From NCBI GenBank assembly GCA_973895155.1, contig OZ316899.1:2935455-2999454 (forward strand): DNA of 64,000 bases. Direction: 5' to 3'. A model generated the notes under the pieces. The model was not told where the DNA came from. It saw nothing but the letters and a program-made list of their open reading frames with translations, and ran no database searches. The position numbers and the translations under genes were made by a program. Of the stretch, positions 15,101 through 45,254 are shown piece after piece (within the stretch, counting starts at the first letter, position 1; each line of letters opens with the position of its first letter). Origin of the DNA: Marsupella aquatica. Taxonomy: Eukaryota > Plantae > Marchantiophyta.

Positions 15101-16024
15101 ATCTCCCCAATGTGCGGGTTGGTGCAGGTGTTCCGGAAGAAGCCATTCTTCGTTGATGGCCCTGGGAACGACCGGAACTCCTTGTCAGGCAAGGTCTTCC
15201 TGGTATCAACTTTGGTCTTATTGCCCATCAGCAAGCCAAATGCTTTGGCAATCACCCAGGGAGTGAGATAGAAATCCTTCCCATACACCCTTGTGGAATT
15301 GGACTCGGGCTCCCAGGATCCCACAAATTCTAATAAGTCTGAATCTGGCACCTCCGGCTTCAGCCATGGTAACTTCACAAAGGCTTCCAAGCCGGATCCG
15401 GCCATGAAGCCTTGGTACTTCCAAGTCTGCATAGCCGTAAAGCATGCATCCTCTTCACGTGCAAAGTGTAATTGCGCGCACTTCCTCGAGGAGGGTCGCC
15501 GCCCAGACTTTCCAGGTGTCATCTCTTGTTGGAACGGCATTGATGGGGTCGACCTCCTCTTCTTTGGCTTCTTCCTGCCTCCTGCTCCCTTGCTCGGCTG
15601 GCTTCCTTGGTGCCGCCAACCTTGTTCTCTTCGCAGGGGTGGTCTCTTCATTGATGTTCCCTTTCCTCTTCATAGCGGCTGCCGTGGATGTTTCTCCTAG
15701 CATGGTTGCCTTCGTCCACCCCTCCATGCTACCCTTCAACTCCTAGTGTATGTTGTTGCAGCGGTTGATGGCTTCCCGTATGCCGACTATTCTGTTCTCA
15801 CAAAACAAAAGATCGTCGAGTTTGTCGGCAGTAGGCGTCCACAGGAATTCAGCCGTTATGAGTTCTCCTCCTAAGAAGGCAGACTTCTGCAGCTCCCACA
15901 GTCGAGCGAGCTCCTGCCGTTCTCGAGCGGCTCTCTCCGATTCTTTGTCCTCGTAGGTCCCAATGTACTCAGTTGCCCATTCTAACAGGCATCCCCAAAA
16001 ATGAGCAGCTTGATTGACGTTGCT
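12179..16024 (-). mobile_element. Family B fragment B1 (accessory-ORF region of a related retroelement, probably its LTR)
   Basis: Near-identical to 62.9-64.0 kb (opposite strand); the encoded protein is homologous to the family A LTR ORF; cut on the right by the A2 5' LTR. No gag/pol seen. Confidence 0.7.
12563..16024 (-). pseudogene. Family B accessory protein (conserved N-terminal motif, plant-transposon-like middle domain, coiled coil), fragmented
   Basis: ORF pieces 15455-15739, 14848-15651 (GLEAFVKLPW...EFVGSW...YGKDFYLTPWVIAKAFGL...KNGFFRNTC), 14068-14805, 13321-14004 and 13142-13339 (heptad-rich), 12563-13084. Confidence 0.75.
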
Positions 16025-19000
16025 TGTGACGCCGCCGGTACGGCGGGTAATGAGTGATTCAGCCTAACGACGCTTAGCACGCGCGTTAGGGGTATCTTAG
16101 GCCATAATTATTAGCATAATGATAGTATTTAGGTAGCCATTATGAGTAGGAAATCATTAGTCAATAATGGGCGTTCGTGTTCGGCCCGGCGGCGAGTTGC
16201 CATTCGCACGCTCGGGTTGCAAACGTGTAATGGGCCCCTTCCTTGGGTCCGTATAACAAACTCAGGGAGGCGGCCATTGACACACGCTGACCCGGACCGG
16301 CGGATTGTCCTGTACACTGTAAGCGTGAAAGGCTTGGCCTATAAGCGACGAGGAGGCGTCGGGCGACCGAGCAGCTCTCAGGGGTATAAAACAGGGGCCG
16401 ATCCTTGGCAGGGCACCAGTTCTTCAGTTCACACGCCAGCTTCGACCCCAGTTCTCTCACTCAGCCTTAGTTGCCGTCTATCTCCTCTGAATGTTGCACA
16501 CAATCCGGTCCAGTTTGGCCATACGATTCTGGACGTAGTTCTTGTCTATCGGAGGGCACTTGGCCGACTCATTAAAACATGCCAACCCGCGACGATACGA
16601 AATTGAACGTGAGTACGAGAGAGCCATCCACCTAGCAAGACGACACCACTATCTCCTTAACTTTGATTACCCGTCCTAGAGTGAGCTTTACCGACCCAAA
16701 GAAATATCAAGGTACTTCTTCGACGGAGGCAAATACATTGGCTTCTGGGAGGCATTGCTTCGGCTTCCGGATGAGGTCTTCAATATCCCGGGCACGATCG
16801 ACTTGCAGGGGCACCACTTCAACCACATCCCCGCTTGAGTCCGGGCTATCATCAACAGCAAGTTCAACACTACCCGGTTGACAAGGCCGTCTACACTTGC
16901 TTCGGAAAACCTCCATCGGCACCTGCAAAACTTCATGGAAACTTTACCATCAACAACCAGTGCGGGCCAACCCGTGTCCATACCCGCACCTACATTTCCT
17001 TGGCCTCAGCCAAGCCGGTCCCCGCCACCGGTCCCACCACCTCTCCGAGTACGATCCGTGGTGAATGCGGTGAATATTAGCTCCAAAGACAAGGAGGCTC
17101 ACCCTCCTCTGAATCAACGGCCGTGGGGTACGACTCAACAAGCGCCGAACAACCCAACATCACTCCAACAAGCCCAAGGGGATAACATAGTAACTCTAGC
17201 GGCCCCAACACCAATACTCACGGCAGTCGCGCTACCACCAGCTGACCGAGAGGAAGGAGAGATGTCCCCTTCTTCTAGTCACCCCGGGAATCAGTCTCGG
17301 GGTAGGAAGAGGAAGGAACCCGTAGCCGTATCCGGGTCGCCTTTGGCCACGGTTGCGGTAGCCAAGCTGACCATGCATTGCATGGGGGACAATGTTCACA
17401 AGAACATCCTCCACCCCAAGCATGCATGCTATCTGAAGACCCAAGGGTTTGAGCACCTCGCCTCTCTTCGTTGGAACGAAAGCAGGTACTATGGGCAAGA
17501 TATGATGGAGTTCATTCAGAATTTTGACGAGGCCCGTCAACAAACCCGAGTGCATGGGAGATTGATGTGTCTCAATGAGGCACATTTGAATATGATTTTT
17601 GGCCTACCTGAGGGGATAAACCGGGTAGAGTCGCAAGCTCCTGGGGGCAAGGGAGCTAAATACCAGTCTTCTAGCTTCCCAACTGAGGGAGTAGTGGACA
17701 ACAGATTCTTAATGAGAACGTGCCTCATACCAGAAGTGGCAAAACGCTTGGAGTTCCAGCGGTATGCCCTCCACATGATGGAACCCAGAGGAAAAATATC
17801 GACCGCGCAGGTCATCCAGGTGGAGAACTATCGGCCCAGGAAGTGGGCATCCTTCTTCGTCAAGAAGTTCCACGAGGAGATGGAGCGGAGAAGAAAGACT
17901 TTGTACCTTGGCGGAACGACGTACTTCGCTAGCCACATCAAAATCATCATCGAGTGGTACGCAGCCTCCCGCGTATCAACGAGCCCGAGCTGACCCCATC
18001 AAAATGGGTGTTCCCAGCCCAGGTGAGGCGACCGCAGCCCGAGGCCCAAAGTCTAGTAGCTGCAAGCCCTGTTACCCCGGCCCCGCAACCCGTCGCTACC
18101 GCCCCGCCAAGCATACCCATAGATGTTATCGCGACCTTAGACGCAATCAATCGGGACAATGCAATTGAAGTCGGGCCAGATGAAGCCATACCCAAAGCAG
18201 ATGCCACGGTAGCCGAGGAGATTTTGCCACCCCCCGCAGTTCTGCAGGAGAACTGCCCACCTCCAATGGAACCGCCCCTTTGACCGACTTACCTCAAGGG
18301 CTGGATGTGTCCACTCCTACTCCCGCACGGGTTGGAGTCTGCCCGTGCCCGAATCCAGATGGACACAGTCTAGACCATCCGGAACTCTTTGCGTCGGGCA
18401 CATTTCTGAACGGGTTGTTGGGAGATTTCTCTCAATAGATCTCTCAGGACACCGGGGAATACATGGCCCAGAGGATGGCCTACTTCTTCAACCAGGAGTT
18501 GGTTGCGGCTGTAAGGGCAGGACATGCGCAGGCAGAGACAACGCAAAGAATAGAGCGATACCGGGTTGAGTCTGCCTACCTAAAGGACGAAGTGGCAACC
18601 CTGGAGGCTGAACTCCAACAACTGTGGCCTCAAGTAACGGCCACGGAGGACCAGGTTGCCAAGGCTAGGGCCCGAGCAGCTTTAGCAGAACAGGTCGGGC
18701 TCGGAAAGGACGCCGAGATTGCACGGCTCCGGACCAAGATTGACGGTTTGAAGGGACAAGCCGTCAGTTGGCAAAAGGATCTGGAGGAAGCTGACTCTAG
18801 GTCTCAGCGGGACACATCCGAGATTGACACCCTGAAGACAGAGGTGGCGCGACTTCAAGGAGAAGCCACGAAACAGGCCCAGTTGGTGGATAAGCTGACG
18901 AGCAACACCCAGCAACTGGAGGAGGCATGCCAGGAGGCCGCGGAAGAGGCGAACGCGGCAAAGCGGGAGAACGAATCTCTGTTGGACCAGGTCCAGCTAC

Positions 19001-19978
19001 TCAAGCAGAACGCCGACAGACTCAGAAGGCAACGGGATAGCCGCTCCCACTCAGGCGGCTCTGGCAAGCGTGCCAGGCATTAGCGGCAGAGTAGGATTAA
19101 AATAGAGTTAGGAATAGCTAAATCAGGCTATAGGGACAAGCACCTGCCCTAGTTAAAGCAGCACTGCCATGCTGTCCAACCTGCGTAGATTAGGATGTTC
19201 TAATAAGACAAGCCGTTTTTTGGTCTGACAGCCAGTTTAGTTAGGATCTTAGTTAGCGAATCTTTGGGCACGAGACCACTCCGGTCCTCAACTCTTAGTA
19301 TTTATTACACCCCTTGGTAGAAGGCGAGGGGGGGGTTTAGTCTCAGTGTTGGACATCCACGGTATGTGCGGGAAGTCCCGACCTCTGGGAGTGAAAGAGT
19401 ACCAAGGGGAGGGCGTAGGACTAAGCTCGCTTGGCAAGTGCGGAGCCGGGCTCCGTTGTAGTGTACACCCTCGGCCTTGGACCTGTTCATTCAAGAGCTT
19501 TTGGGTCAACTAAGTGTACGCATATGTCTCCTATGTAGTAAAATTGTTTCCCATTAATTCCTTCGTGTAAATTGAGATTGTATGCTTGTGCGTATGTATA
19601 TGTGTGAATCTCGTGTATAGGTGCCAATGCTTGGCCGAACGCACTACCCAAGTCGTGCACGGGGTGCAGCTTGCGGGTAAGTGGTTGCGAGCCCGGGTTG
19701 AGTACCCATATCATCGAATTCGGATCGAAGGCGGACAACACGAAGGCTTAGAAGCCCGTAAGCCGGGGTCGATCCTGCTATCGACTGAGGTACGTTCCGG
19801 CGGCGAAACACAAACCATACCTAGGAGGTGTCCGTATATGACAATAGGCGCACTTAGTGCTAGTTTACGTCAGTTAGGCGCATTCCGTGCCTCCCTCCCT
19901 GCCCAAACCCTCATTTTGATGAAGGATGTGCCTGTCTAAGCCAAAGAACGGGTTAAGGCCTAGGCTGACGACGTGACA
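16025..19978 (+). repeat. A2 5' LTR (3954 bp), TGTGACG...CGTGACA
   Basis: TG...CA ends, followed by the PBS; start matches the PPT-adjacent LTR start at 58778. Confidence 0.93.
16491..19083 (+). pseudogene. LTR-encoded accessory protein, A2 copy (stops/frameshifts)
   Basis: ATG at 16491 (MLHTI, cf. MSHTI); pieces 16878-17993, 17954-18283 and 18463-19083 match the 880-aa ORF; ends GGSGKRARH-stop. Confidence 0.9.
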
Positions 19979-19993
19979 TCTAGCCTTTGTTTT

Positions 19994-20011
19994 TGGCGCT
20001 AGATGGAGGGG
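19994..20011 (+). other. A2 primer-binding site, tRNA-Asn(GUU)-like
   Basis: TGGCGCTAGATGGAGGGG; complementary with one mismatch to the 3' end of plant tRNA-Asn (...CCCCTCCTTCTAGCG-CCA, recalled, not searched). Confidence 0.7.
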
Positions 20012-20109
20012 GCACTCTACGTGTAGTAGAGGGGAGATATGTGCGGGTGCACCTAGGCAAAAAACACCAGACCCTAGTGAGTTACTAACCATCGCATTTG
20101 TTCGAGTAA

Positions 20110-20305
20110 ATGCCCGTCACTCATTCTCAAGCAGCTTACTTGAGGAGATTGACCAGCGAACGAGAGAGTGCAACCACAACAAGCTCCAACTCTTCAAGAT
20201 CGGAGGATTCGCAATCGCCTCGACGAATGAACATACCACCGGGACCTTTGGGGTCCTGCTCCGGTCCCTGTTGCACCACCGCCAGCACCACCACTGCCAC
20301 CGGTA
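20110..20305 (+). pseudogene. gag: A2 gag 5' end (interrupted by element C)
   Basis: MPVTHSQAAYLRRLTSERESATT matches the A3 gag start; sequence resumes at 30108 (cctatggca). Confidence 0.9.
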
Positions 20306-20966
20306 TGTCACACCATTCTAGGTAGTGTTAGAGTGTATTGTATTATCTAGATCCGTATGTTTGGTATGTGTGCTATATGAGCCGATAAGGTTTTGTTAGG
20401 TTTGTGTGAGAGGGTACTTCTCACTTGTGAGGCATTAAAAGGTCATCTTTCAATGTTGAGCCTTGGAGAGAGAGGAGCTTGAGTGTGGCTATGGTGGCTA
20501 TGAGGAGGCTTTACACCGTGCCAGGAAACAGGAAAATGATTTCCTGTTATGAGCAAAATTTTACTGTTATCAGCAAAAATGAGATATAAAAAATTTCTCA
20601 TTAAAACTCAAAATTTTCAAAATATTTTTTAAAACGATCATTTTTGGCTAGCGCCAGGCGCTACTATTACTAGCTTGGGGCGCTAGTAAAAAAATGTCCA
20701 AAATTTAAACCAAAAAAAAAAAATTCCCAAAAAAAAAATTCCAAAAATTCTCATCCATTTTGCTGTTTACTGTTTACTGTTTCCTGTTTCCTGTTTAGTG
20801 TTTCCTGGCACGGTGGTTATACCCGCTATGAGCTCCGCTTGTGTAACGTGGATTCCTTGAGTAGTGCAAGGTGCGTTGGCTTGACATACTTGTGTGATCG
20901 GATCGGTGCGGGATCGATGGGGTATTGTTGACCGGGATCGTTGTGCCAATTGTTGAGGAGATTACA
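20306..20966 (+). repeat. Element C terminal repeat segment a1 (333 bp plus MITE insertion)
   Basis: TGTCACACC...GAGATTACA; matches 29636-29967 once the 20505-20832 insertion is removed. Confidence 0.9.
20505..20824. mobile_element. Non-autonomous MITE-like DNA transposon (320 bp; hAT- or Mutator-like)
   Basis: Absent from the sister repeat at 29636-29967; 8-bp direct repeat GCTATGAG at 20497-20504 and 20825-20832; subterminal inverted repeat ACCGTGCCAGGAAAC; AT-rich interior, no ORF. Confidence 0.85.
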
Positions 20967-21474
20967 TTGAAAGATCATATGCAAACTCTGCTGTGCGGAC
21001 TATGCAAACAGAAGTTCGTATGTGTTGATTGAGTTGGCGACGGTTTGGGGAAATCGTTGTGTGGATCCGTGGTAGCTCGGATCGTATTGAATAGATCGTT
21101 GGCATCTTGGTTGGTTGCTGGTAACGGATCTGAAGTGGGAGATCCGAGTTCTGAAGTTCTCCTGTTGACGGTTTTTGGACAGAGTTCTCAAGCAGATCGG
21201 TGGTGACGTCCGATCATTGTGAAGCCTTTGATAAGCTGATTGGGTGATTATTGTGAGCTCTTTGATAAGGATTTGTGCGTGTAGTGGGCTGCTCTGTAGA
21301 TCTGAATCTGCATATCGTTTGGTCGATGTTTGTTCCATTTTTTGGGAAGAAAAGAAAAGAGCTTTTGACAATTTTTGGGTTCCTGTTGGTCGACAGCTTT
21401 TCATGAAGGAAATCGATAGTTTTCGGGAGCTTTTCGTGAAAGAAATAGTCATTTTTGGGGTTAGGTGTGAGGCA

Positions 21475-21682
21475 CGCGAGGTCACCCATCCCGAAAGTGC
21501 TCCCAACCGCGAGCGCGAAGTCATCCATCGCAAGCGCAGGCAGGCGCGAGGTTGAGGTCACCCATCCCGGGGCTATTCCGGGCCGTGAGCGCGAGGGGAG
21601 GCATGAGGGCTATTCCGAGTCGCAAGCGCAAGGCGAAACGCGAGGTCACCCATCCCGGGGCTATTCCCAATCGCAAGCGCTT
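21475..21682 (+). repeat. Degenerate GC-rich tandem repeats in the element C leader
   Basis: Recurrent GAGGTCACCCATCCCG, GGGCTATTCC and CGCAAGCGC modules. Confidence 0.8.
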
Positions 21683-22349
21683 AACTGGCAAGTTCTCATC
21701 CCACCTTGTGTACACACAAGTTTTCACAACTTGTTGTTTAGATTCAAGCGCCAGGGGGCTTTATACACTTTCCGGTTTGCTTAGAGCCTTGTTTCGGGCC
21801 AAATCAGAGGCTCGTTAGAGGTTTTTGATAGTTTTGAGTTCATCTAAATGCACAGATTGAACCAATTCTGCATGGTTTCTCATCTATAACATTGGGACAT
21901 CATGAAGCCTATTATGAAGGCCTTTCATTGAACATTATGAATATTTGTTTGATCAATGTGTGATCACTCTTGGTGTGGAGAGTTAGTGTTTGACTATTCT
22001 TGTTGATTGGATCCTCTCCACACTTGTTTCCTGTTTATGCGCCATGTTGGTTCGGTATGGGCACTTGATTCCATAGGAGTGATCCGGGTTTGCAACCGGA
22101 CATTCTAGTGTGCTGTGTATTTCTCTCCTGGTGATGTTGGAGTGATGCCCAACACACCATGGTGAGTGCTTGTGGTGCTGATAGGGACAGATTGCCCTTA
22201 GGGTTAGCATATAGATTAGATTAGGGTTGGTCACCACGGATTCTTCTGGTGCTGCTGGGTTACCCAATGGATGATGGACCGGTTTCACTCGGAGTGGGGC
22301 ACAGTTTTGGCCAGCGGCATTGGTAGCAGTCAACAGTGCAGCTTTAGAC

Positions 22350-23580
22350 AGTGATTCCGACGAGGACTCAGTCACCAGTTCTCCTTGTCATCAGGTGGTT
22401 GCACCTTTGTTGTGGGATATGGACGAGATGTACGGGGCTACAAAGGGCCCACGATGATACTCTAGTGCAGTTGGCACAATTGATCTGGATGACTTCATCC
22501 AGGAGTTTGATACGTGGTGTGATATGCAAACACTGCGTAACGCCATGTTGTTTACCCCTTTCATGGCATGGAAGGGATTATTTCAGCATTTGGAGGGGCC
22601 ACCCATGGATGACTACAATGAGTTTTGAAAGGCTCATTTGGTTGAGATTGAGGCATGGAGGCAACATTGGTCGCCTAATTACGTGTCCATCACCTATGGC
22701 ACTAGTGCGGCTGCCCAACCCATTGCCACAGCTACTGCTTCTTCTAGCAGCACTAGCCAGAGTGGCACACCATCCACCAGCAGCATCCACCGTTACTCCT
22801 GCCGGTGTGATTGTGACAGGAACTAGAGTTGCGCCAGCATTTAACCCTATGGTGGAATTCTTTGAGGTACTGAAGCAGAACTATCAGGGTGTGAGAACTG
22901 ATAAGTTGAAGGGTCTCCAGGAGTTCCAACGCAAGATTGGAGAGAGTCTACGCGAGGCATACACTCGTATGCGCAGATTGATCACTGTCACCAAGGGAGT
23001 GACAGAGGCTCAGGCAGTCCAATTTTGGTATGCAATTTTGGACAGAGAATTGCGACGCAGAGTGAGAGATGTCACCCTGCTTAGGGATGCAGATCCCACA
23101 TTGGCAGTTGTTTTTACCCTTTCTAAGCGTCTTGAGCTCAATATGGTGAATGAGAAGGTGGTGACTTCCGGATTTGCCAAGGAAGCACCAAAGACTACAT
23201 CTACATCCACACCACAGCCTATTGCACGGAAGAGCCAGAGGGAGAAGCCTACTGCACGAGAGTCTACCAGCCAGAGACCTGTGCCCTCTTATGCTGGACA
23301 GCAGTCAGGATGTTGGACCTCTGGTGGGAATCATGCACAGAGATATTGCCCAGATCATAGAGGATCAGGGGGAGCATCAGCTCCTGATCAGCGACAGTGT
23401 AATCACTGTGGAGCTCCTGGACACACCAAGGATAGGTGTTTCTCACTCCACCCTGAGTTATGGAGAGGAGGATCACGTACACATGATATGGGAAGAGAAG
23501 GGGAGGAGGTAGAGGTGGTGGACGTGGTCGTGGCACGCCACATGCAGGGAGACAGGGAGGTGACACTGCCCTTGCTATAA
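22350..23580 (+). pseudogene. gag: Element C gag (frameshifted)
   Basis: IDLDDFIQEFDTWCDMQ (frame 3, 22479); capsid-like LQEFQRKIGESLREAYTRMRRL; knuckle CNHCGAPGHTKDRC. Start codon uncertain. Confidence 0.8.
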
Positions 23581-25016
23581 CCATAGATCCAAAGGATGCT
23601 AAGATTGCTCAATTGGAGCAACAACTAGCTGCCATGGCTAGTTCCCAGGTGAGACCTAATTCTGGTGATGGGGCATCTACATCCTATGGACCTTCCACAT
23701 CCCATGGTCCTTCCACATCTGATGGAGCTGATGGAGACCTTGCCACCATGGGATTCATGTGTGGCACTGCACATATTGATGCATCAGCAGCGTTGACACG
23801 TGGGGCAGCCAAAGCTCTTGAGCCCCAAGGAGCAGTAGTGGAGTTAGATCCACAGAGGGAGGATGCACGTTGGCAGACAAAGCTTCCTCAGTCTTTTACA
23901 TTGTAAAAGACAGTTCAGACTGCCTCTATGAACCCGGTTCGGACAAACCCTGATGTGGGTAAGTCGGCAGAATCAGGTAGTGATGCAGTAGGGATGACAG
24001 GTACCCTGCTGGAGGCGGCTACTGCCATGGTCCGCACCCCATTATTTTCAGCGACAGACATGCTGAACTTGGGAGTTGGTCTTGCAGAAGTGTTCAGATT
24101 GGCAGCTACACTCTGTGAGGACACTCCAGTGGTTGCTTCCCATGCAGAAGCAGCTTGCAGTGTTGAAGCAGTGAAGACCATGCCACCTACTGCTACTAGT
24201 GAGACATGGCATGCAACAGCAGCAAGGTTGGTGGATTTACCAGCACGCCCTGCATTTGAGAGGACTAGGTTTAAACCTAGTGTTGTGTCATTGGATAATC
24301 AAAGTGGTATCTTCCGATTAGTTGGGCCTTCTGGGGCAGTATACCAGCCAGAGAGAGTGTTACTGGATACTGGTGCTCAGCCCTTGATGTTGGGTAAGTC
24401 TGCCATACGTGGATTGGGATTGCGTCTAGAGGATTTGGAGGATTGTCCCATTCCCATTCAGACTTCATTGGGGGGACCTACACCTACACAGCACATTACC
24501 AGGAGACCTCTTGATTTGAGGATTCAGGAAGGTCATACCACAGATAGCTCACAGATATAGGCGCGAGCTATTCTGACTAAGGTAGAGTCATATGATGTGT
24601 TGGTGGGATGTACAGTGCTCTACCCCATGGGATTTATTCTTGATTTTTGGGAGGAATCAGTGTCATATAGACCTGATTGGCAGTAAGGAGATGCTCGATT
24701 GAGAAAATTGCAAGTGAGATTTAGTGGACCTGTGGGAGGCCCTAAATCCACACCATTGTCTTTGGCAGCATTCAGTGGTCTAATTGCTGGACCTGATGAT
24801 TTGATTGAGGGTAATGCGCATGCAACAGATGTTCCACCATTGGAGGAGTCTCATGAGGAGCACATCATGCGAGGATTACCTGTTGGCAGTGTTGTGCCAC
24901 CAGTGTGGGGCACTGCATAGGCCTTGCCACAGGCAGCAGCACGATTGGTACATGATGCATGGCGTCATGCTTTTACACCACAGTCAGGACCAGAGTAGTC
25001 TCTTGCAGATGGACCT

Positions 25017-26028
25017 GTGACTCTTTCACCATTGGATACCACTTCTATTGCTTGGCAATATCCACTGGAGGGTATTTGTTTGTTGGATCTTTTTGGTGGA
25101 ATTAGCACTGGATTGGCTGTTGTTCTTCAGGCAGGAATTTCTGTGTGTCGTTATTTGTATGTGGAGACAGATGAGACAGCACGGAGGGTCTCATTGCGAC
25201 ATGTGGCTATGTTGGTGGATAGATATCCACAATTGCTGCCAGTGGATGCTGTTTGTGGTTATCAGCATGCACTACCTGCTAATATTTCATTGCTGGGGGC
25301 GGATCATCTGCATCGTGTTGGCCCCATTGATTTGGTGATTGCTGGTTGGCCATGTCAGGGCCAATCTAGAGCTGGCATTGGGCATGGACTTCATGATCCA
25401 CGCTCTGCACTGTTTTGGGAGATGTTACGGGTGTTGCGTCATCTCCAACTACATCAGACACAATCTCCAACATACATTTTGGAGAATGTGCCATTGTTAG
25501 GTGATGATTGTAGTCGGATTGTTGCCAGTGTTCACCAGGTGAGGTCTTGGATTGGACCTGCTGTGTTACTGGATGCTGCACATGTGGGTTCTCGTGCACA
25601 TCATCCATGTTTGTGGTGGACCAATTTGATCCCATGTGAGGTGCTGAAGCGCGCATTTGACAACATTCCACGCTCACCAGCCTTAGTGGTGGATGATATT
25701 TTGGATCCAGGGCGTCGTGCACAGGGTGTGACCCAACCACCTCCATTGGCAGTGGTCAATGCAGTTGGGCGCCCACGTTGTGCATTACCCACTCTTGTAA
25801 GCCACTCTGCTTCATATGCATTCAGAGCAGGTGGCCCTGGACTTGTGTGGGACACAGCTCTCTAGCAGTTAGTGGAGCCTACTGCTGATGAGAGAGAGCG
25901 TGCTATGGGAGTTTTGACTGGCACCACTGCAGTTGCCTCTGTGTCAGAGGGTTTGCGGCGCCAGGTTCTTGGTCAAACAAGGGATCTGAATTGTTTGACT
26001 TGGATTATCAGCTTGGGAGTAGCTTAAC
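25017..26028 (+). pseudogene. DNMT3-like C5 cytosine DNA methyltransferase domain within pol
   Basis: Motif I LLDLFGGISTG (25083), II YLYVETD, IV DLVIAGWPCQG (catalytic PC at 25350-25355), VI YILENVP (25482), decayed VIII AHHPCLWWTN; past a TAG at 25863, IX ERERAMG and X RRQVLGQ..DLN. Confidence 0.92.
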
Positions 26029-29000
26029 AGTTGCGGATGCGCTCTGCTGGAATTACTGATTGTCCCTTGGTGAGCTTGCGGTCCACTAAGACAGTACTGA
26101 CCACAACTGGGGGCGAGCAGACCTATGGACCTATGGCAGGATTGGCCAAGGCTAGACAGATTGTTGAGCAAGAAGGGACTGCTCAATCTACTGCTAAATA
26201 GCAATCATCGACTATCTTTTCTACCCTACAAAGAGATATTAGGGATTTGGTGGAGAGTTGGGAACCACAGCTTGGCCCTAAGTTGACAGGGAAGGAGAGA
26301 CGTTGCATGCATCAATTCCTGAAGAGTTACTAGAATTGTTTTGCATTTAGCATGATGGATTTGGGGACATTAAAGGGTCCTGGTATTCAGATTGAATTGG
26401 CTAGTGATGCGCCAATCTTTCGTAGGCCATATCGTTACAGTGACATGGAGAGAGCTCTGATTCAAAGCAGAACTCAAGATTTGTTGGAGGCTGGATTGGT
26501 GGAGATTTCATATGGGGAGTATGCATCTGCCACAGTGATGCCAGCCAAGAAGGATGTGCATGGCAATTACACAGATAGGCGCATGTGTGGTGATTACAGA
26601 CCCATTAATTGCCAGACAAAATCTGATAGATATGCCATGCCCACACCTGAGGAGATCTTTGATGCTGTGGGGCATGCAAAGGTTTTTAGTTCATTGGATC
26701 TGAGGGCAGGGTACCATCAGCTTCCAATTAGGCATGCTGACAGGTCCAAGACAGCATTCTGGGGGATTGATTCTTATGGCAAAGATTGTTTGTATGAGTG
26801 ATTATTCTTACCATTTGGGTTGAAGAATGCACCAGCTGAGTTCCAGAGAGTCATGGATCGAATCCTTGCAGGTTTGGATTTTGTCAGATGTTATATTGAT
26901 GATATTTTGGTCTATTCTTCTACTGTGGAAGAACATCAGTAGCACTTGCAGATTGTGTTGGAGAGATTGAGAGCACATGGGTTGAAGCTCCATCCTAGCA
27001 AGTGTAAGTTCTTCCAAGACCAGATTGAGTATTTGGGCCACACTATATACCCAAGGGGATTGGGTGTACAGCAGACTAAAGTGGAGGCCATTACACAGAT
27101 TCCTTGTCCTACTGATGTGAGTAGAGTTCGTGCATTCTTGGGATTGGCGAGCTACTACAGGAGGTATGTTAAAGGATTTAGCCAGCTTGCTAAACCTTTG
27201 ACCATACTCACTAAGTTGGATCAGGAATGGATTTGGGGTGATGACCAGGAGCATGCCTTTCAGGAGTTGAAGCAAAGGTTGGCATCATCCCCTATTTTGA
27301 GAAGACCCATTTCAGGCAGACCATTTCAGCTACACACTGATTGGAGTGGAGTAGGACTTGGAGTAGTGCTGACTCAGAAGGTTGATGAGGGGAATGAGTT
27401 TGGTGTGGCTTATGCCAGTAGATCAAACAATTCAGCAGAGGCTAAGTATAGCTCTTATGAGGGAGAGTGTTTGGCAGCAGTGTGGGCTGTTGCACATTTT
27501 TGTTGCTACTTGTTTGGTAACCCCTTCACCTTGATCACTGATCATCAGCCTCTTAAGTGATTAATGGAGTCTGACAAGCTTACAGGGAAGCTTGCACGAT
27601 GGGCATTGTTGTTACAGGAGTATGATTTCCAGGTGGTGCATAGGCCTGGGAAAGTGAACTTGGATGCAGATGGATTAAGCTGCAATCCATGTACCAGTCA
27701 GCAGGATGAGACTGGAGCCAGATGGCATGATGAGTCAGATAAAGAGATGGTGTCAGGATGGCATGCATCTGCCTTTCTTTGTTGGGTGCTAGCATACAGT
27801 GGATCTGTGGACTCTACCTCATTGGATGGAGTGGATGAGGAGTCTTCAGATGTGGATGTTGGTGAGGTAACTTTTGGACAGCAAGATATTCACAATGATG
27901 TGAGAGTGTTGGAATATCAGTGATTCTATTGTTGGCAGTGTTGATGCCAAAGAACGTGACAGGGTTCTACAGAGAGCCAAGAGGTTTTGATGGGAGGGAA
28001 ACCATCTTTTGAGAGTACTGCATGATGGCAGGGTGTTGGTGGTACCAAAACCATCACAATGAGTCCATTTGGTGCGACATGCACACGAGGAGTTGGGGCA
28101 CTTTGGTGTGAAGCGCACTTATAGCTTGCTGCAGACACAGTATTGGTGGCGTGGTATGCACACTCATGTCCAACAATTGATAGCTAAGTGTGTGGTATGT
28201 GATAGAGTGAGAGCATCATTTAATGCTCCCACTCCCCAGTTGCACCCGTTGCCGATCATGGGTTTGGGATATCGTTGGAGTTTGGATTTTGCTGGTCCAT
28301 TACCTCTTACCCAACGTCATAATCGGTATGTTTTGGTCATGGTGGAGCACTTCTCCAAGTGGATTGAGCTAGTGGCATTGCCAAATAAAGCCAGTGGAGG
28401 AGTTGCTGCTACATTTTTGGATCGTGTACTCAATCATTTTGGAGCACTAGCTGAGGTATTGACTGATCAGGGAATTGAGTTCCGTGGAGAGTTTGAGAAT
28501 TTGTGTGAGCAAGCTCTGATTGATCATCGTACTACCTCTCGTGATCATCCTCAGGCAGATGGATTAGCTGAGAGAGTTGTGCAAACTGTGAAGAGAGAAT
28601 TGCGTAAGTATGGCTTGCAGGTTGGTCATTTGGGAGATTGGGATCTCCAGCTACCTTGGTTAGCTATGGGCTACCGTTTCAATTGGCAAGCATCACTAGC
28701 ATCCTTCTCACCTTACTTTTTGCTCTATGGTAGAGAGCCAGATTTGCCAGCAGTTATTCGTCGTGATGCTGCACCAATTGTGAACTTGGATGATCCTGAT
28801 GTTTGGGCCAAGGTGTGTTTAGAGAGAGCACAGGTATTTTAGAGAGTGATGCCCATGGCTTTTGACAACCTTGCCATTGCCCAACATCGTGATACTTTGA
28901 GGTATGCCACTATTCGTGGAGGAGGTTACCGTGCAAGCATTCGACGATTTCATCCTGGTGATTATGTTTATTTGCAGCAAACAGCACCCACGACACTTGA

Positions 29001-29181
29001 TGTGACCGCAGGCCGGACAATCTTACGTGTGCGTGAAGTGTTGCCTTCTGGTGTCCTGATGTTGGAGGGACGCGATGGTATGGTTTGGAAGGATCATGTG
29101 CGCAACTGTGCACCATGTCACCTTCCCAACATTGATGGTACAGTAGATCCAAGCTTGGCACATGTTCATGTTGGCTTGAAA

Positions 29182-29316
29182 TGTATGTTGTGTGGATCTG
29201 CTCAGGGAGCAGCTACTATGTTGATTTGTGATGAGTGTTCTAGAGGATGGCACATGTCATGTTTGACACCACCATTGCAGGTGATTCCTAGTGGATCATG
29301 GTTGTGTCCTCAATGT
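29182..29316 (+). other. PHD finger at the integrase C-terminus
   Basis: CMLC...MLICDECSRGWHMSCLTPPLQVIPSGSWLCPQC = canonical C4HC3 with conserved W, ending the pol frame (TGA 29320-29322). Confidence 0.93.
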
Positions 29317-29486
29317 CGGTGAAGCCGACTAGTTATCATTTGTGTTCTCTTGGCAGATATGGATTGCATGTAGGTGATCGATGGGGCTCACTTGCACCCG
29401 GCCTCCTGATCTTCACACCTAAAAAGGTGTATATCAACCTTGTAGAACTCATGGCTAGCTAGAGTTAGGGGACCTTACTTCCAGCT

Positions 29487-29496
29487 AGGGGGGCGA
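29487..29496 (+). other. Element C polypurine tract
   Basis: AGGGGGGCGA, one base before the TG at 29498 that starts repeat segment b1. Confidence 0.8.
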
Positions 29497-29497
29497 T

Positions 29498-30103
29498 TGT
29501 GGGTTTTGGACATGTGTGGACATGAGTTCCACTTGTATTCCATTCTCTTGTGTTTGTGATGTGGCAGTGTGACTATGTTTGGATGTATGTGACAAGCGAT
29601 GTATGTTGTATAGCGATGTGTATGCGCACGATAACTATCACACCATTCTAGGTAGTGTTAGAGTGTATCGTATTATCTAGATCCGTATGTTTGGTATGTG
29701 TGCTATATGAGCCAATAAGGTTCCGTTAGGTTTGTGTGAGAGGGTACTTCTCACTTGTGAGGCATTGAAAGGTCATCTTTCAATGTTGAGCCTTGGAGAG
29801 AAAGGAGCTTGAGTGTGGCTATGGTGGCTGTGAGCTCCGCTTGTGTAACGTGGATTCCTTGAGTAGTGCAAGGTGCGTTGGCTTGACATACGTGTGTGAT
29901 CGGATCGGTGCGGGATCGATGGGGTATTGTTGACCAGGATCATTGTGCCGATTGTTGAGGAGATTATTGTGAGTTTTGGACATGTGTGGACATGAGTTCC
30001 ACTTGTATTCCATTCTCTTGTGTTTGTGATGTGGCAGTGTGACTATGTTTGGATGTATGTGACAAGCGATGTATGTTGTGTAGCGATGTGTATGCGCACG
30101 ACA
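29498..30103 (+). repeat. Element C 3' repeats b1 (29498-29633) - AC - a2 (29636-29967) - b2 (29968-30103)
   Basis: b1 and b2 are 136-bp direct repeats (TGTG[G/A]GTTTTGG...GCACGA[T/C]A); a2 matches 20306-20966. Confidence 0.92.
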
Positions 30104-30107
30104 GGTA

Positions 30108-33100
30108 CCTATGGCAACCGCCCCACCAGTTGTGGCTCGCGCTGCCCCAGCTCCCCCACAAATATCACAACGGTTGCGGTTTCATTATTGACCTTTCAAA
30201 GGGCGTCATGGGGATGATCTGAATGAATGGTTGGACGAGTGTGAAGGCCAACGGGGAAGATGCCATTAAGCTAACCGTCCTCCCCGGAGTGATGCGGGGA
30301 GAAGCTCGTCCATGGTACAACTCGCTGCCACCCGGGCCTATATGGGCACAATTCCAAGCTGCATTGCTGCAAGAGTTTTGTGCCATTGGATCAGAGCAGC
30401 GTTCTTTATTAAACATTGGCCAGCTTCGCATGGAAAAAAAAGAGATCCTACAAAAGTTCATTCAAAAGTTTCAAAAACTTGCTGCCAAGATCCGGCCCAG
30501 GCTGGGTGACGCGCTCCAGCTTACGTGGTTCCTCCACGGTTTGCCCACAAATATGCAATTATGGGTGCGCCAAAATAACCCAATTTCAATGCAAGCAGCC
30601 ATAGCGTGCGCCGAAACCTACCGGGAGTCCACCTATAACTCCCGGCAAAGCCAGTGGGCATGCCGTAAGAAGGGCAAGTACGAGACCTTCAGTGACAATG
30701 ACTCCGAATCAGACGACGAGAAGAAGAAGAAACACAAGAAGAAGAAGAAACATTGTTCGACCTCGTCCAGTTCGGAGATAGAATCTAGTTTGGATTCGAC
30801 TTTGACCAGCGGATCCTCCACCACTTCTAGCTCATCGAGAGTGATTCAGAGAGTGAGAGTCGAGGCAAGAAGAAGAAGAGGCGGGTTAAGAAGGAGGGGA
30901 AATCAAACCCCAGGTTCAAAGAGTGATACCCGATCCAAAGACTGCCGAAATAGACAAGCTTAACAAAATCACAAATTGTCTCAAAGCATTGTCAGTACAT
31001 CTCGCGGAAAAGCTGGTGGAGAAGAAGAAGCCACTTGAGACCCGAGCCCATGCATGGTGTTCAAAGTGCTTCCAATCTGGGCATGTCGTGCAAGAATGCC
31101 CAAGATGGAAGAACCGAGTCCACCGGGTGGAATTAGATGATGTTGACAACCCGGGACCTAAATCGGAGTCCACGGAGTATTTCTTTGAAGACCCTCCTGA
31201 TTCGGTGTATCATATTTCAATGGTGGGTCCGCGTAAGTTAGCAGGTAGAACTGCATACCCCTACCTAAACAATGGCAGAAGTTTCCAAGTTATCAGTAAC
31301 CCAAGCATTCCTCCTAAGCCAGGGATTTGACGATCCCCGGTTTGTTACAACTGTGAGAAGCCAGGCCACTTTGCGAGGGAATTCACCAAACCAAGATGGC
31401 AGGGGGATGGCCAAGGCACACCACTATGTCAAGTCTGCAAAACGGAAGCTCATTCCACGGCCAACTGTCCATTGGTAATAGCCGCTTGAACAAACACAAC
31501 AAGACCGGCCAAGGGCGGACCGGCCACGAGCGATGCAGTCGTCCAAATGATTGTTGTGGAATGGCAAGATGACAACACCGAGTGGGTAAATCTGGTGGAC
31601 GTGGCGGAGCACCCTAATCCATCGGATGAAGCTGAGTGCTACCAAGTGTCAACAAGAGCCGAGCGGAAGGAAGAGAAACGCAGGAAAAAGCAAGATACTA
31701 CTCCGGTGCAGCCAGCGATAGATATACCCCCGGAGAAGGATGATGACTACCATCGGGACGACCCAAGCTATTTTACCCCTGCATCGAAGAATTGGTAAAG
31801 AAATAGTTGGAGGCCTACAAAGCGCGGGAATACCAGAAGGCAATCAATAAGGACATCAAAGCAGCCAAGGCCGCCCAGCGATAGGAGCAAGAAAAGCAAG
31901 AGGAGGGAGCCAAGCAGCAGCCGAAGGAAGAAAAGAAGGAGGACTATGATATTAAGGAAGACATGAAGAGTTGCCCGGTTACAGCAACGGTAGGGCAACT
32001 GCTGCAGAACAATCCACAGTACCGACGGCAGTTGAGGGAGTTGCTTACGGGTCGGCAACGGAGGCGACTACCCCGAGTTGGGATCGCGGACTGCAACATG
32101 ATATGCGAGGACCTAGGAGCGCCGAACATCTCGATTGAGATCAATAATTGTACCATCAAGATGGTTCTCGTAGACGGAGGAGCGGGAGTCAACATCATGA
32201 CTGAGGAAACATCAGTCAAGTTAGGATACCTCACGTATCAACCCATAGCCCAAGCTATCAGATTAGCAAACGGGGCAAGGGTTCTTCCATTGGGCACGCT
32301 CACGCGAGTGCTCACTCGTGTAGGAGGGGTGGAGTTCTATCTCAACTTCCTAGTCATGAGACTGGTTCGGCCCTCCTCTTATCCGGTCCTTCTGGGCAGG
32401 CCGTGGTTGTATGGTGGCCGTGTAGTCACGGATTGGGGAAAGAAGGAGCTACGGTTCGGGACACCCACAGTACGAGTATCATGGGCAATGGATGATTATC
32501 AGGGTGAAACCCCACAGGGACCCGAGGAATATGATTCGGAGACCTCGGAGGAAGATGAGCTCAATATGATTGAACTCATTTGGTCCCTGTCCAAGGAAGA
32601 TATCTTCGGAGTAGAGGCAACCCGAGAAACGCATCTCCTGAATTACCCGAAGGTTGCTATTGAGTCCACCCCAAGCACCTCTACCGCCCGGGCTGATGAA
32701 ACGCAAAAATGGCCCATCAAGGAGGACATGGCTCCAGCTAAGCAGGGAGCCGATGCTGCTTCTACCAGTGTAGAGCCTAGTGACCCCAAACCGGCCAAAC
32801 AACTGCCCGAGGCCGAAAACCCAAGACCAAGACATAAGAAACAAGTCTCCTGGGACCCGTCCATCCTGCAATTGGAGGAAGTAACTCCAAATCCAAAACC
32901 AATCCTGGTTCCACCCATGTACGGAGGAGTTCGGTTAGTTGAGCTGGATGCAAGCCTGGACCCGAGCTTGCGGAACCAGGTGGAAGTCTTAAGGAAGGAG
33001 CACTACCGGAAGTACACCAGTGGGATGGATAAGTCTTTTAACTTGGGCCACGCTCTGACAGGGGAGGCGGAAAAATCTATCCAAGCACTGCTCAAGGAAT

Positions 33101-35129
33101 ATGAAGATGTGTTCGCATGGAGCCATCACGATTTAACGAGAGTCTCCCCCGAGTTGGGAGAACACACGATCGATTTGAACCTGGGGGCCCATACAGTACG
33201 GCAGCGACAACGTTGCATGAACCCGAGGTACTCCATCTTAGTGAAGGAGGAAATTGATTGTTTCCTCGCCGCAGATATCATCTACCCGGTAATGGCCAAC
33301 GACTGGGTTTCTCCCATTGTCATTGGACCAAAGAAGGGAGGTACGGATGGAAAACCTAAGATCCGGATTTGTCAAGACTATTGTAAGCTGAACGACGCAA
33401 CCCGAAAAGACCACTACCCGTTACCATTCACGGATATGGTTCTAGATATGGTAGCCTGAAACAAAATTTATACATTCCTTGACGGGTATTCAGGTTATAA
33501 TCAAATCTGGATCCGCCTCTCGGATCAGCTCAAAACAACGTTCACTACGGAATGGGGGACGTTCGCATTTTGGAGAATGCCATTCGGGCTGTGTAACGCC
33601 CCGACCATGTTTTAGCAACTCATGATGAATATCTTCCATGATTTCCTATGGGAATTTCTGGAAATATTTATCGACGACTTTGCCATCTTTGGGATTGTCG
33701 CCATGCACCCCAAACATCTACAACGTACGCTACAACAATGCTGAGAGGTTAACCTCAAGCTACATCCCGCCAAATGTTTTTTTGGGGTAGAGGAGGGAGT
33801 GTTACTTGGGCATCGTGTGTCCAAACGGGGTATCAAGGTGGACCAAGAGAAGGTCGCGGCTTGGATGGCGGTTGTGTTTCCCGTAGATCAAAAAGCGGTA
33901 TGATCCTTCTTGGGCTGTGTAGGGTACTATCGTTGGTTCATTAAAGATTTTGCTAAAATTGCGTTGCCCTTAACTGAGATGATGAAGAAGGACGCAGTGA
34001 TCGAGGAGACACCCAAGAGACGGATTGCTTTCGAAGAACTCCGTAAACGACTCACCACCGCACCTATCATGGTCACCCCGGACTGGAATAAGGAGTTCCA
34101 TGTGTATGTCGATGTGTCAGGGTTCTGTATCGGGTCCGTGCTCAGTCAGCTTGATGAGGACGGACGTGATCACCCCATCTACTTTGCTAGCCGTCAACTA
34201 TGCACAGCCAAAAAAAATATTCTCCCACTGATCGAGAAGCTCTGGGAATAATCTACTCATGTAAGAAGTTCCGACACTATCTGCTCGGCTACAAGGTCAT
34301 ATTCCACACGGATCATGATAGCCTGAAGTACATGGTCAACAAAGCGGATGTGACGGGACGGATAGCACGGTGGGTGCTACTTCTCTAGGAATTTAACTAT
34401 GAAGTTTGGGTTCGGCCAGGAAAGGCACATCTCAATGTCAACTTCTTTTCAAGGCTGGACGGCGTACCAGTTGATCAGTCAATTAATGATACTTTTCCGG
34501 ATGAGGAGTTATTCCACGTAGGGGCACAAACGCCTATGTGGTACGGCTCAATAATCACCTTCCTCTTAACAGGCCGCATCCCATCAATCAGGAGGCCGCC
34601 GCTGTGTTTTTACGAAAGGCCGGGCCGTACGTTATGATACAGGGTCACCTACACAAGGAAGGAGTTAATGGGAAGCTACAATGCTGCTTAGAGTACAAGG
34701 AGATGCTCATCGTTATGCGGGCCTTGCATGAAGAAGAAGCTGGAGGCCATTTCGCGGCTCTCACAACAGCCCAAAAGATTCTAGATTCGGGGTATTGGTG
34801 GCCTACGTTGCATCAAGATGTACAACCCTTTATCAAGGGATGTGATTTGTGCCAACGGGCTGGTGCCCCGAGGAGAACCCATAACCACCCCCTCACTTCT
34901 GTGCCCCCGCTAGCACCATTCGAGAAGTGGCGCATTGATTATATCGGGCCTTTCACTCCAGTTACCCGAAGAGGCAGATGCCGGTACATCCTGCTAGCCA
35001 TCGACTACTCCACTAAATGGGTTGAAGCACGGGCTACGGTGAGGGACGATGCCGCCACAAGCGCCCGATTCTTATACGAGCAGATCTTCACCCAGTTCGG
35101 ACCGCCCTTGGAATTAGTAAGTGACAGTG
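30108..35129 (+). pseudogene. gag-pol: A2 gag-pol, central part (multiple stops/frameshifts)
   Basis: ORF pieces 30223-30963, 30923-31330, 31963-33459, 33910-34251 and 34538-35134 align to A3 gag-pol; broken by A3 in the integrase at ELVSD. Confidence 0.93.
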
Positions 35130-35487
35130 TGTGACGCCGCCGGTACGGCGGTTAATGAGTGATTCAGTCTAACTGCGCTCGGCACGCGCGTTAGGTGGGT
35201 CTTAGGCCGCTATTATTAGCATAACGACAGTATTTAGGTAATCATTAGGGGTAGGACATCATTAGGCAATAAGGGGGACTTCAGGTTCGGGCTGGCGGCG
35301 GGTCGCTATTCGCACACCCGGGTTACGAGCGTGGAGGGGCCCCTCCCTCGGGTCCGTATAACGAACTTAAGGAAGCGGCCACTGACGCACGCTGACTCAG
35401 ACCGGCGGAGTGGCCGGTACACCACAAGCGTGAGCGGTTCAACCTATGGGCGTCGAGGAGACGTCGGGGATCGACAAGCCCTCAAAG

Positions 35488-35494
35488 TATAAAA
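35488..35494 (+). promoter_or_regulatory. TATA box upstream of the LTR-encoded ORF
   Basis: TATAAAA 358-360 bp from the LTR start in four copies (16385, 35488, 45580, 59138) and at the equivalent site in A1 (5195-5201, minus); 108 bp upstream of the ATG. Confidence 0.7.
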
Positions 35495-35595
35495 GGGGAG
35501 CCAACCCTTTGTAGTGCACCAGTCCATCAGTCCGCGCGCCAGCTTCGACCCCAGCTCTCTCGTTCTCTCTAGGTCACCACTACTATCTCCTCTGA

Positions 35596-38238: not shown

Positions 38239-39146
38239 CGGCGGAGTAGGAATAGATTAGGATTAGGATTGGCTTAGTCAGGCTCTTGGGACAGGCACCT
38301 GCCTTAGGTACAGCAGCGCTGCCCTGCTGTCCAGCCTGCGTAAATTAGGATCTTCTAATAAGACACAGCCGTTTTCCGGCCTGACTGTCAGCTTAGTTAG
38401 GACCTTAGTCAGTGAATCTTCGGCGAGAGGACACCCCGTTCCTCGGCTCTTAGTATTTAGTGCACCCCTCGGTAGAGGCAGGGGGGTTTTTAGTTTCAGA
38501 GTCGGACATCCGCGGGACATGCGGGGAGTCCCGACCTCTGGGAATGACAGAGTACCAAGGGGAGGGGGTAGGACTAAGCTCGCCGGGCGAGTGCGGAGCC
38601 GGGCTCCGTTGTAGTGTGCACCCTCGGCCTTGAACCTGTGCATTCCAGGGCTGTCGTGTCAACTAAGTGTACGCATATGTTCCCTTTGTAGTAAAATCCT
38701 TTCCCATCATTTTCCTTCATGTAAATCGAGATTGTATGCATGTGTGCGCATATGTGTGTGGGTTTCTCGTATATGGGTGGCAGCGCCAGGCCGAACGCAC
38801 TACCCGAGATGTGCACAGGGTGCAGCCTGCGGGTAAGTGGTTGCGAGCACGGGTTGAGGACCTGTATCATCGAATCCGGATCAAAGGCGGACAGCACGAA
38901 GGCTTAGAAGCCCTTAAGCCGGGGTCGATCCTGCTATCGACTAAGGTACGTTCCGGCGGCGGAACACAAACCATACCTAGGAGGTGTTCGTATTTAGCAG
39001 TATGCGCACTTAGCGCTAGTTTACGAGAATAAGGTGCATTACGTGCTTCCCTTCCTGCCCGAACCCTCAGATTTACGAGGGATGTGCCCGTCTAAGCTGA
39101 AGTCTGAGTTAAGGCCGAAGCCTACGACGTGACATAGCCTTTGTTT

Positions 39147-39164
39147 TGGCGCTAGATGGAGGGG
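39147..39164 (+). other. A3 primer-binding site, tRNA-Asn-like
   Basis: TGGCGCTAGATGGAGGGG, 12 nt after the LTR end. Confidence 0.72.
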
Positions 39165-39257
39165 GCACTCTACATATCATAGAGGGGAGACATGTGCGTA
39201 TTCACCTAGGCAGGATACATCAGGACGTAGTACTAACCATTGCATTTATATGAGTAA

Positions 39258-45200: not shown

Positions 45201-45254
45201 TCACAATTAAGCAGGGAGCTATGTGACGCCGCCGGTACGACGGTTAATGAGTGA
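39258..45254 (+). pseudogene. gag-pol: A3 gag-pol, single frame (~1998 codons) with two premature stops; Athila-like, no chromodomain
   Basis: ORFs 39258-39974, 40197-41378 and 41412-45254 share one frame; stops TAA (39972; TAC in sister copies) and TAG (41376; CAG in A2). PR VLVDGGAG, RT RICQDYRKLNDATRKDHYPLPF/FIDD, RH YVDVSG, IN HEEEAGGH..CDLC, DDE core, GPF. Confidence 0.95.
45209..45221 (+). other. A3 polypurine tract
   Basis: AAGCAGGGAGCTA immediately before TGTGACG; same motif before the A2 3' LTR (58765-58777). Confidence 0.8.

Follow-up and report, generated by a model that had tools for sequence, protein, structure and literature searches.

Within the window analysed here, a stretch of 64,000 nucleotides from the liverwort Marsupella aquatica, we identified a Ty3/gypsy retrotransposon carrying a DNMT3-like cytosine methyltransferase (MTase). 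We propose that this MTase ends the Gag–protease product, that the polymerase domains would follow a leaky UAG, that reverse transcription may be self-primed and that insertion would proceed through a two-LTR circle; for this account as a whole we estimate a probability of roughly 0.55. That a Gypsy element can bear a Dnmt3 together with DIRS-like repeats is already known from Klebsormidium. Beyond a first reading, the sequence points to a conserved stop between the MTase and the reverse transcriptase (RT), to complementarity suited to self-priming and to circle-type ends.

A nested gypsy element with a DNMT3-like methyltransferase

The element spans 20306–30103 (9.8 kb), is nested inside a second gypsy family and is flanked by the 4-bp target duplication GGTA (20302–20305, within the other family, and 30104–30107). 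An empty insertion site is visible in another copy of the surrounding family, in run X2 a contig runs straight from 20300 into 30105, and past 30103 the sequence gives way to unlike flanks in 18 contigs of run X5. Along the plus strand the order is Gag–protease (PR)–MTase–stop–RT–RNase H (RH)–integrase (IN)–PHD. A gag with a zinc-knuckle-like region (approximately 22390–23900; no Pfam match) resembles the N-terminal part of the Marchantia proteins P0123–P0125 and is interrupted by frameshifts and stops. It is followed by an aspartic protease with a DTG motif (24273–24720; PF13650, E-value 0.0015, which is under the cut-off, although a protease also lies upstream in relatives), the MTase domain (25041–26024), RT and RNase H (26253–27680, by profile match), a DDE integrase (28063–29150, by profile and structure–sequence match; best solved relative Ty3 integrase, E-value 1e-20) and a C-terminal PHD finger with its stop (29176–29322, by profile match). 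The integrase lacks a chromodomain, and the PHD finger occupies its place; the best matches of the latter were to CHD4, DPF3, KDM5B PHD1, ATXR5, PHF21A and UHRF1, whose PHD fingers bind unmodified H3 tails. No tyrosine recombinase was matched in the seven element frames profiled, where an rve integrase was found instead; membership of the DIRS, PAT or Ngaro groups was rejected on these two grounds and on the 4-bp duplication. Protease, MTase, RT and RNase H share one frame, as had been stated beforehand. This copy is dead, with 12 stops interrupting its PR–RH frame between 23904 and 27921 and a frameshifted gag.

The preliminary description of this DNA had recognized the C5-MTase motifs in unpermuted order and had judged the domain to be DNMT3-like and not a plant DRM, and both statements were borne out. 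PF00145 matched the MTase frame with an E-value of 3e-10 (40.5 bits against the Pfam cut-off of 22), and motifs I–X run unpermuted and without an intron, starting at 25089 (I), 25161 (II), 25344 (IV, PC), 25476 (VI, ENV), 25590 (VIII), 25887 (IX) and 25968 (X), numbered as is usual for C5-MTases. The first 29 of 51 PDB matches (to an E-value of 1) were DNMT3A, DNMT3B or DNMT3C, the best at 5e-10, with M.HaeIII at 1e-4. Furthermore, the domain of P0121, a relative 85 % identical to the window, was modelled with AlphaFold (pLDDT 94, pTM 0.92) and compared by Foldseek, and 32 of the 32 matches listed were DNMT3 (best E-value 6e-20, TM-score 0.84 by target). The domain is a genuine DNMT3-like C5-methyltransferase, plant DRM identity being ruled out by the unpermuted order I–X and by an E-value of only 0.18 for DRM2.

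Comparisons within the family drew on the best 80 of 94 metagenome relatives, which were retrieved via the MTase, belong mostly to one moss-type family and include some duplicates. The window copy is inactivated, as first suggested, with stops at 25863 and 26025 in the MTase frame (25017–26028) and loss of the motif VIII RxR. The motif here reads AHHPC, whereas Arg occupies its two positions in 28 and 29 of 43 related loci, and the replacement codons, CAT and TGT, are those expected from CpG deamination of Arg codons. PC, ENV and RxR are retained in relatives, the catalytic Cys being present in 42/43 loci and the ENV Asn and Val in 43/43.

The remainder of the window holds further elements. 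The second gypsy family, which lacks an MTase, is both nested and tandem (30104–39450, 39452–47300, 10460–1600 on the minus strand, and 16000–20305); after its integrase it carries an extra ORF of 880 aa (35596–38238) with a coiled-coil C-terminus, for which the Atlas gives streptophyte Transposase_28/PMD proteins as look-alikes at a score of 0.8, to be taken as no more than a lead. A 161-bp unit is repeated 4.9 times in each of two identical-looking arrays (48461–49244 and 56164–56947, 7703 bp apart), which probably belong to the LTRs of a third element, with its RT on the minus strand at about 52020–52620.

A conserved stop between methyltransferase and reverse transcriptase

The MTase had been described as a polyprotein domain inside pol and not a captured passenger. 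The element indeed carries it at a constant position and under selection, and not as a passenger; its placement inside pol did not hold, given a conserved in-frame stop ahead of RT. Among the 51 loci that span motif X to the start of RT, 40 keep the frame and 11 are frameshifted. A stop was found in 39 of the 40 same-frame loci, 16–17 codons upstream of the RT WEP motif and always followed by CAA, the one remaining locus having Tyr; a pattern scan that presupposed TA returned TAG 41 times, TAA 17 times and TAC once. At the other 2135 columns, the stop count reached at most 14/43 loci. In the window the corresponding TAG CAA begins at 26199, 19 codons upstream of WEP, in a linker that is otherwise unalignable; the frame and the TAG-CAA are thus maintained though linker length differs, and decay as the source of the stop at 26199–26201 was ruled out by its presence throughout the family. 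Protein models agree with this position: P0121 terminates at the same residue as the window stop, 15 of 46 motif-X-bearing proteins end 78–100 residues past motif X, and those of Marchantia and Calypogeia end 96–100 residues past it. Five gene models do continue into RT; all of them skip some of the linker, and no two do so at the same place. Five relatives have an open frame from MTase to RT, as does the published Klebsormidium element, so that a fusion is evidently tolerated. Since a conserved in-frame stop before RT means that the MTase ends the Gag–PR reading frame, we are confident in placing it at the end of ORF1.

As to how the domains beyond the stop are made, readthrough of the UAG seems to us the better supported route for RT–RH–IN–PHD, judging from its sequence context. 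The type I readthrough motif, known from tobamoviruses, is UAG-CAR-YYA with upstream AA (PMC3542737), and the window context (26199–26207, plus strand; AAA UAG CAA UCA with the upstream adenosines) fits it completely. The moss-type relatives differ from tobamoviruses in having UAG CAA CCC, with CAACCC at +4 to +9 in 57/59 copies and an in-frame ATG two codons past the stop (CAA CCC ATG, not CAR-YYA), and in these copies TTTTTGC(G/A)TAG precedes it. With such an ATG and a pyrimidine run before the TAG, termination–reinitiation, or a spliced RNA that uses the TAG as acceptor, would fit as well, and we consider this second route possible, though clearly the less probable of the two. Against it, no in-frame ATG occurs in the window from the stop to the conserved RT start, TAG-CAA and the frame are retained across linkers of differing length, the five models that continue into RT make their joins at five different points, and five relatives are open from MTase through RT. 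RNA folding 3' of the stop revealed no unusual structure (z −1.1 and −0.6). Whichever route makes pol, the MTase would belong to the upstream, abundant product. Under readthrough, ribosomes would mostly halt at the UAG, so that the MTase would be made at the level of Gag, packaged, and present far above RT and IN, and the protease would free it from the Gag–PR product.

Split terminal repeats, priming and insertion

The ends of the element are built from two repeats, A (138 bp) and B (330 bp), in the layout B1–internal–polypurine tract (PPT)–A1–AC–B2–A2. B1 (20306–20963, plus strand, as are all of the repeats) comprises 330 bp and a later insert, and begins with TGTC, the left end of the element. 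The PPT (29487–29495) is identical in moss-type relatives and is followed by A1 (29496–29633), B2 (29636–29965) and A2 (29966–30103), which is bluntly joined to B2 and finishes with GACA, the right end, as repeat comparison and contigs indicate. B1 and B2 differ at 12/330 positions, and A1 and A2 at 3/138. Six loci share this split-repeat layout at equal distances from the PHD, and a one-off rearrangement of the ends was rejected. The 28 loci that contain A past the MTase consist of eight long forms, 18 that stop at A1 and two that are rearranged. The 4-bp duplication accompanies both long and short forms, being perfect in 11/14, matching at three of four positions in two and clipped by the contig end in one.

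Several smaller features were seen in and around these repeats. The insert within B1 (20505–20824) is MITE-like and 320 bp long; it is bounded by terminal inverted repeats, and its duplication of 8 bp is of hAT-like length. The 5' leader (21480–21680) contains short imperfect repeats and varies in length between copies, and in one locus (L001:1678–2014) a lone B repeat is nested upstream of the protease with neither A nor the primer site next to it. Many of the 4-bp duplications start or finish with CA or TG (TGTG, TGTT, CACA, TACA, TTCA and CATA), which may reflect insertion near CG sites.

Immediately 3' of B1 lies a 12-mer resembling a primer-binding site (20964–20975, plus strand), which does not start with TGG and is complementary at 12/12 nt to 20445–20456, also on the plus strand, a predicted self-primer at the transcript 5' end; none of 2000 shuffles reached even 11. 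Complementarity of at least 10 nt is kept in 14 of 28 moss-type copies, at the equivalent place and in different letters, and no tRNA gene was found within the 64-kb window. Tf1-type priming on the element's own 5' end is therefore likely on the strength of this pairing, with the caveat that the self-primer 12-mer also forms one side of a hairpin within B. Tf1/Sushi elements and the plant element Tcn1 likewise have a primer site complementary to their own LTR, a likeness that here is at the sequence level, and in Tj1 a stop separates gag from pol; the former are described as chromoviruses with ordinary LTRs and with no mention of an MTase (PMC6317226, PMC4600332).

A begins exactly after the PPT and B finishes exactly at the primer site, and these two landmarks define a normal LTR of the form A-NN-B. 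The true LTR would accordingly read A-GC-B (470 bp), with the PPT setting the start of A and the 12-nt self-primer site setting the end of B. Reverse transcription would yield a linear A–B–internal–A–B cDNA, the blunt ends of which would be joined into a circle, creating a B–A junction. Such an exact blunt join of LTR ends is what B2–A2 represents in the window and in six of seven long loci. L017 has extra bases at the junction and L035 and L037 retain bases from the primer-site (PBS) side, and these additions resemble those of circle junctions.

Within the LTR, the two ends of the inserted element, TGTC and GACA, adjoin as GACA-NN-TGTC, which in the window is the internal A–B junction (29630–29639), a decayed GACA-GC-TGTC palindrome and the predicted integrase attachment site. 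The spacer is AC in the window, and in the eight long loci it is GC in three, AT in three, AC in one and TC in one; GC gives a perfect palindrome, from which AT and AC would derive by deamination. The integrase cut site would then be the palindrome GACAGCTGTC within the LTR; cleavage of its upstream copy as GACA^GC-TGTC would give CA-3' ends and 2-nt overhangs. In foamy virus, integrase cuts the palindromic CA-NN-TG junction of 2-LTR circles to yield processed ends (PMC1180852). The cut predicted here is alike in its palindromic CA-NN-TG, its 3'-processed ends and its 2-nt overhangs; it differs in that the foamy virus palindrome arises where LTR ends join and serves a side route (PMC1180852), whereas here it would lie inside the LTR and be the only route. 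If a two-LTR circle were opened at the upstream palindrome, exactly the B–internal–A–B–A form observed would result, and the cut circle would insert in that form with a 4-bp duplication; the ends and the duplication are those seen. Short forms may stem from one-LTR circles, double cuts or recombination between A1 and A2.

On this sequence evidence, we lean towards insertion from a two-LTR circle. Were circles opened at random, the mirror form B–A–B–internal–A should occur too, and as this was absent from all 27 5' ends, something must favour one palindrome. That same absence, with only B–internal–A(–B–A) found, is what would be expected if the split repeats were instead copied in the manner of PAT/Ngaro elements and integrase acted on ordinary linear ends, with no two-LTR circle. 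In the PAT/Ngaro-type DIRS model, the internal junction templates restoration of both ends of a linear product. The published likening of such repeats to those of DIRS elements (PMC5890265) also speaks for it. We regard this alternative as rather unlikely, as B2–A2 bluntly joins the point set by the PPT to that set by the primer site, both in the window and in the moss-type family, and as some junctions contain extra or PBS-side bases.

Role, selection and range of the methyltransferase

Methylation of cDNA by a packaged retrotransposon MTase was proposed in PMC5890265, the discussion of which treats the role of retrotransposon-borne DNMTs as an open question. For the present element, an MTase made at the level of Gag would be particle cargo, which favours cDNA as its substrate; it would methylate CG in the new cDNA, so that the copy would enter the genome already marked, and the integrase PHD would bind unmodified H3 tails, favouring silent chromatin. 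Composition offers a hint. CpG o/e in the element coding body is 0.15–0.35, compared with 0.49–1.01 in the other 29 2-kb bins, and at codon positions 3–1 it is 0.04, compared with 0.51–0.93 in the surrounding family, even though the CG-depleted element is younger than the gypsy copy it sits in. In moss-type loci, by contrast, the element is less depleted than its flanks (0.58 against 0.31), so that CG loss is not general. This is one of two points in favour of the MTase acting on host chromatin or target DNA, or merely binding DNA or RNA, and not on element cDNA; the other is that the Klebsormidium domain was inactive on DNA in yeast, a result its authors call inconclusive (PMC5890265). We think it improbable that the enzyme's role lies there, considering the retention of the catalytic Cys and of the ENV Asn and Val, the position in the Gag frame, which favours packaging, and the finding that the SymbioDIRS-Dnmt3 enzyme methylates CG de novo (PMC5890265).

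The idea that a piece of a host gene was captured and now drifts as the MTase of a single copy, as the stops that break the window copy might suggest, is refuted for practical purposes by its identical position in liverwort and moss relatives, a dN far under dS, the lack of introns and a wider family of 141 clusters at 50 % identity (E-values up to 1e-30). For the window against 43 loci, MTase dN is 0.28 and dS, near saturation, is about 1.85. Among loci, dN/dS is 0.57 for the MTase, 0.59 for the protease and 0.37–0.41 for RT, RH and IN (0.37 for RT), all of these values being raised by post-insertion decay. The comparisons support the MTase as a fixed, selected part of the element under purifying selection. 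In loci long enough to show them, a protease lies upstream in 57/63, RT downstream in 54/62, an integrase in 25/28 and a PHD in 21/28; as the loci were retrieved via the MTase, members lacking it cannot show up among them. In runs with the element, summed contig depth is alike over MTase and RT, and one contig skips the MTase, which lends weak support to most element copies carrying it.

Named relatives come from Marchantia polymorpha, M. paleacea, Calypogeia fissa, Riccia sorocarpa, Sphagnum troendelagicum and S. fallax, with identities of up to 65–68 % over the MTase domain. In quick ML trees, built without host DNMT3, DRM or bacterial references and, for RT, without reference RTs, the window and P0121 MTases are sisters (98) within a 20-row clade (99) that holds all of the named bryophyte rows, and fall outside a subclade (89) of the named bryophytes, a placement that makes an early-diverging land plant the likely host; three metagenome rows were placed in the group with Sphagnum. 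In the RT tree, L007 and L055 bear the label 'other' but belong to this same family, with RTs that are frameshifted. Classification of 182 proteins gave 47 in which the MTase follows RNase H and precedes integrase, 31 that end after protease–MTase and 11 with RT after the MTase, and the RH–MTase–IN type forms a separate RT clade of 42 rows (99). Its gypsy polyproteins (P0146, P0150, P0152, P0155–P0157 and 41 more) include several with a PHD and one from the chlorophyte Haematococcus lacustris. IMG/VR and prokaryote genomes contained no relative (0/25 and 0/26 candidate stretches). Separately, P0158 (4100 aa) combines RT, a PCIF1-type domain (PF12237) and a C5-MTase with no integrase match, and is possibly a DIRS-like element with two methylases.

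Retrotransposon-borne MTases have a precedent, as had been noted, in charophytes and dinoflagellates (PMC5890265), and the present element is very probably KnitGypsy-Dnmt3-like. KnitGypsy-Dnmt3 of Klebsormidium nitens, called lineage-specific, is a Gypsy element with a Dnmt3-like domain inside its Pol ORF and, by the legend of Fig. 4c, DIRS-like repeats (PMC5890265; de Mendoza 2018); permuted ends, which the preliminary description had counted towards novelty, are consequently not new. The two share PR–RT–RH–IN with a DDE integrase, an intronless, unpermuted Dnmt3-like domain under purifying selection and, as far as that legend describes them, split terminal repeats. They differ in the conserved stop that here separates MTase from RT, and in range, the present relatives occurring in liverworts and mosses. 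No sequence labelled Klebsormidium was among the relatives retrieved, and the kinship rests on the published description; in the main text of PMC5890265, 'PHD' and 'Marchantia' do not occur, and its results, discussion and legends do not treat the priming and integration route. SymbioDIRS-Dnmt3 (PMC5890265) and EpiLTRs (bioRxiv 10.64898/2026.05.21.726589) also carry C5-MTases and are distinct, the former having a tyrosine recombinase and the latter a DNMT4-related MTase with DAM and a chromodomain, in place of the DDE integrase and PHD found here. Later papers give the range merely as 'streptophytes'. Within the literature covered, which is mostly outside subscription journals and so largely open-access, there was no report of Gypsy-DNMT3 in bryophytes or Haematococcus, nor of an MTase–RT stop, self-priming or a circle route for such elements.

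The Haematococcus lacustris protein would extend Gypsy-DNMT3 to chlorophytes. A far-reaching and quite doubtful extension of our account is an old green-lineage clade in which the attachment site has moved into the LTR, integration is from two-LTR circles only, and methylation of cDNA by a capsid-level DNMT3-like enzyme picks which of two identical palindromes is spared; for the choice of palindrome, the only pointers are that MTase and split ends occur together and that a CG lies beside the cut. If true, it would amount to a self-made modification system tying the methylase to the split ends. If every insertion comes from a circle, the family would offer a natural example of integration through circle junctions, which is mostly regarded as a side route or a dead end. 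Search programs that look for a pair of terminal LTRs bounded by TG/CA (PMC6317226) would overlook such elements, perhaps the reason why the literature covered reports none from bryophytes. Marchantia relatives are near-intact, including Mp4g09160, a Gag–PR–MTase model of 1278 aa, and they place the question of what the MTase does in a transformable model plant.
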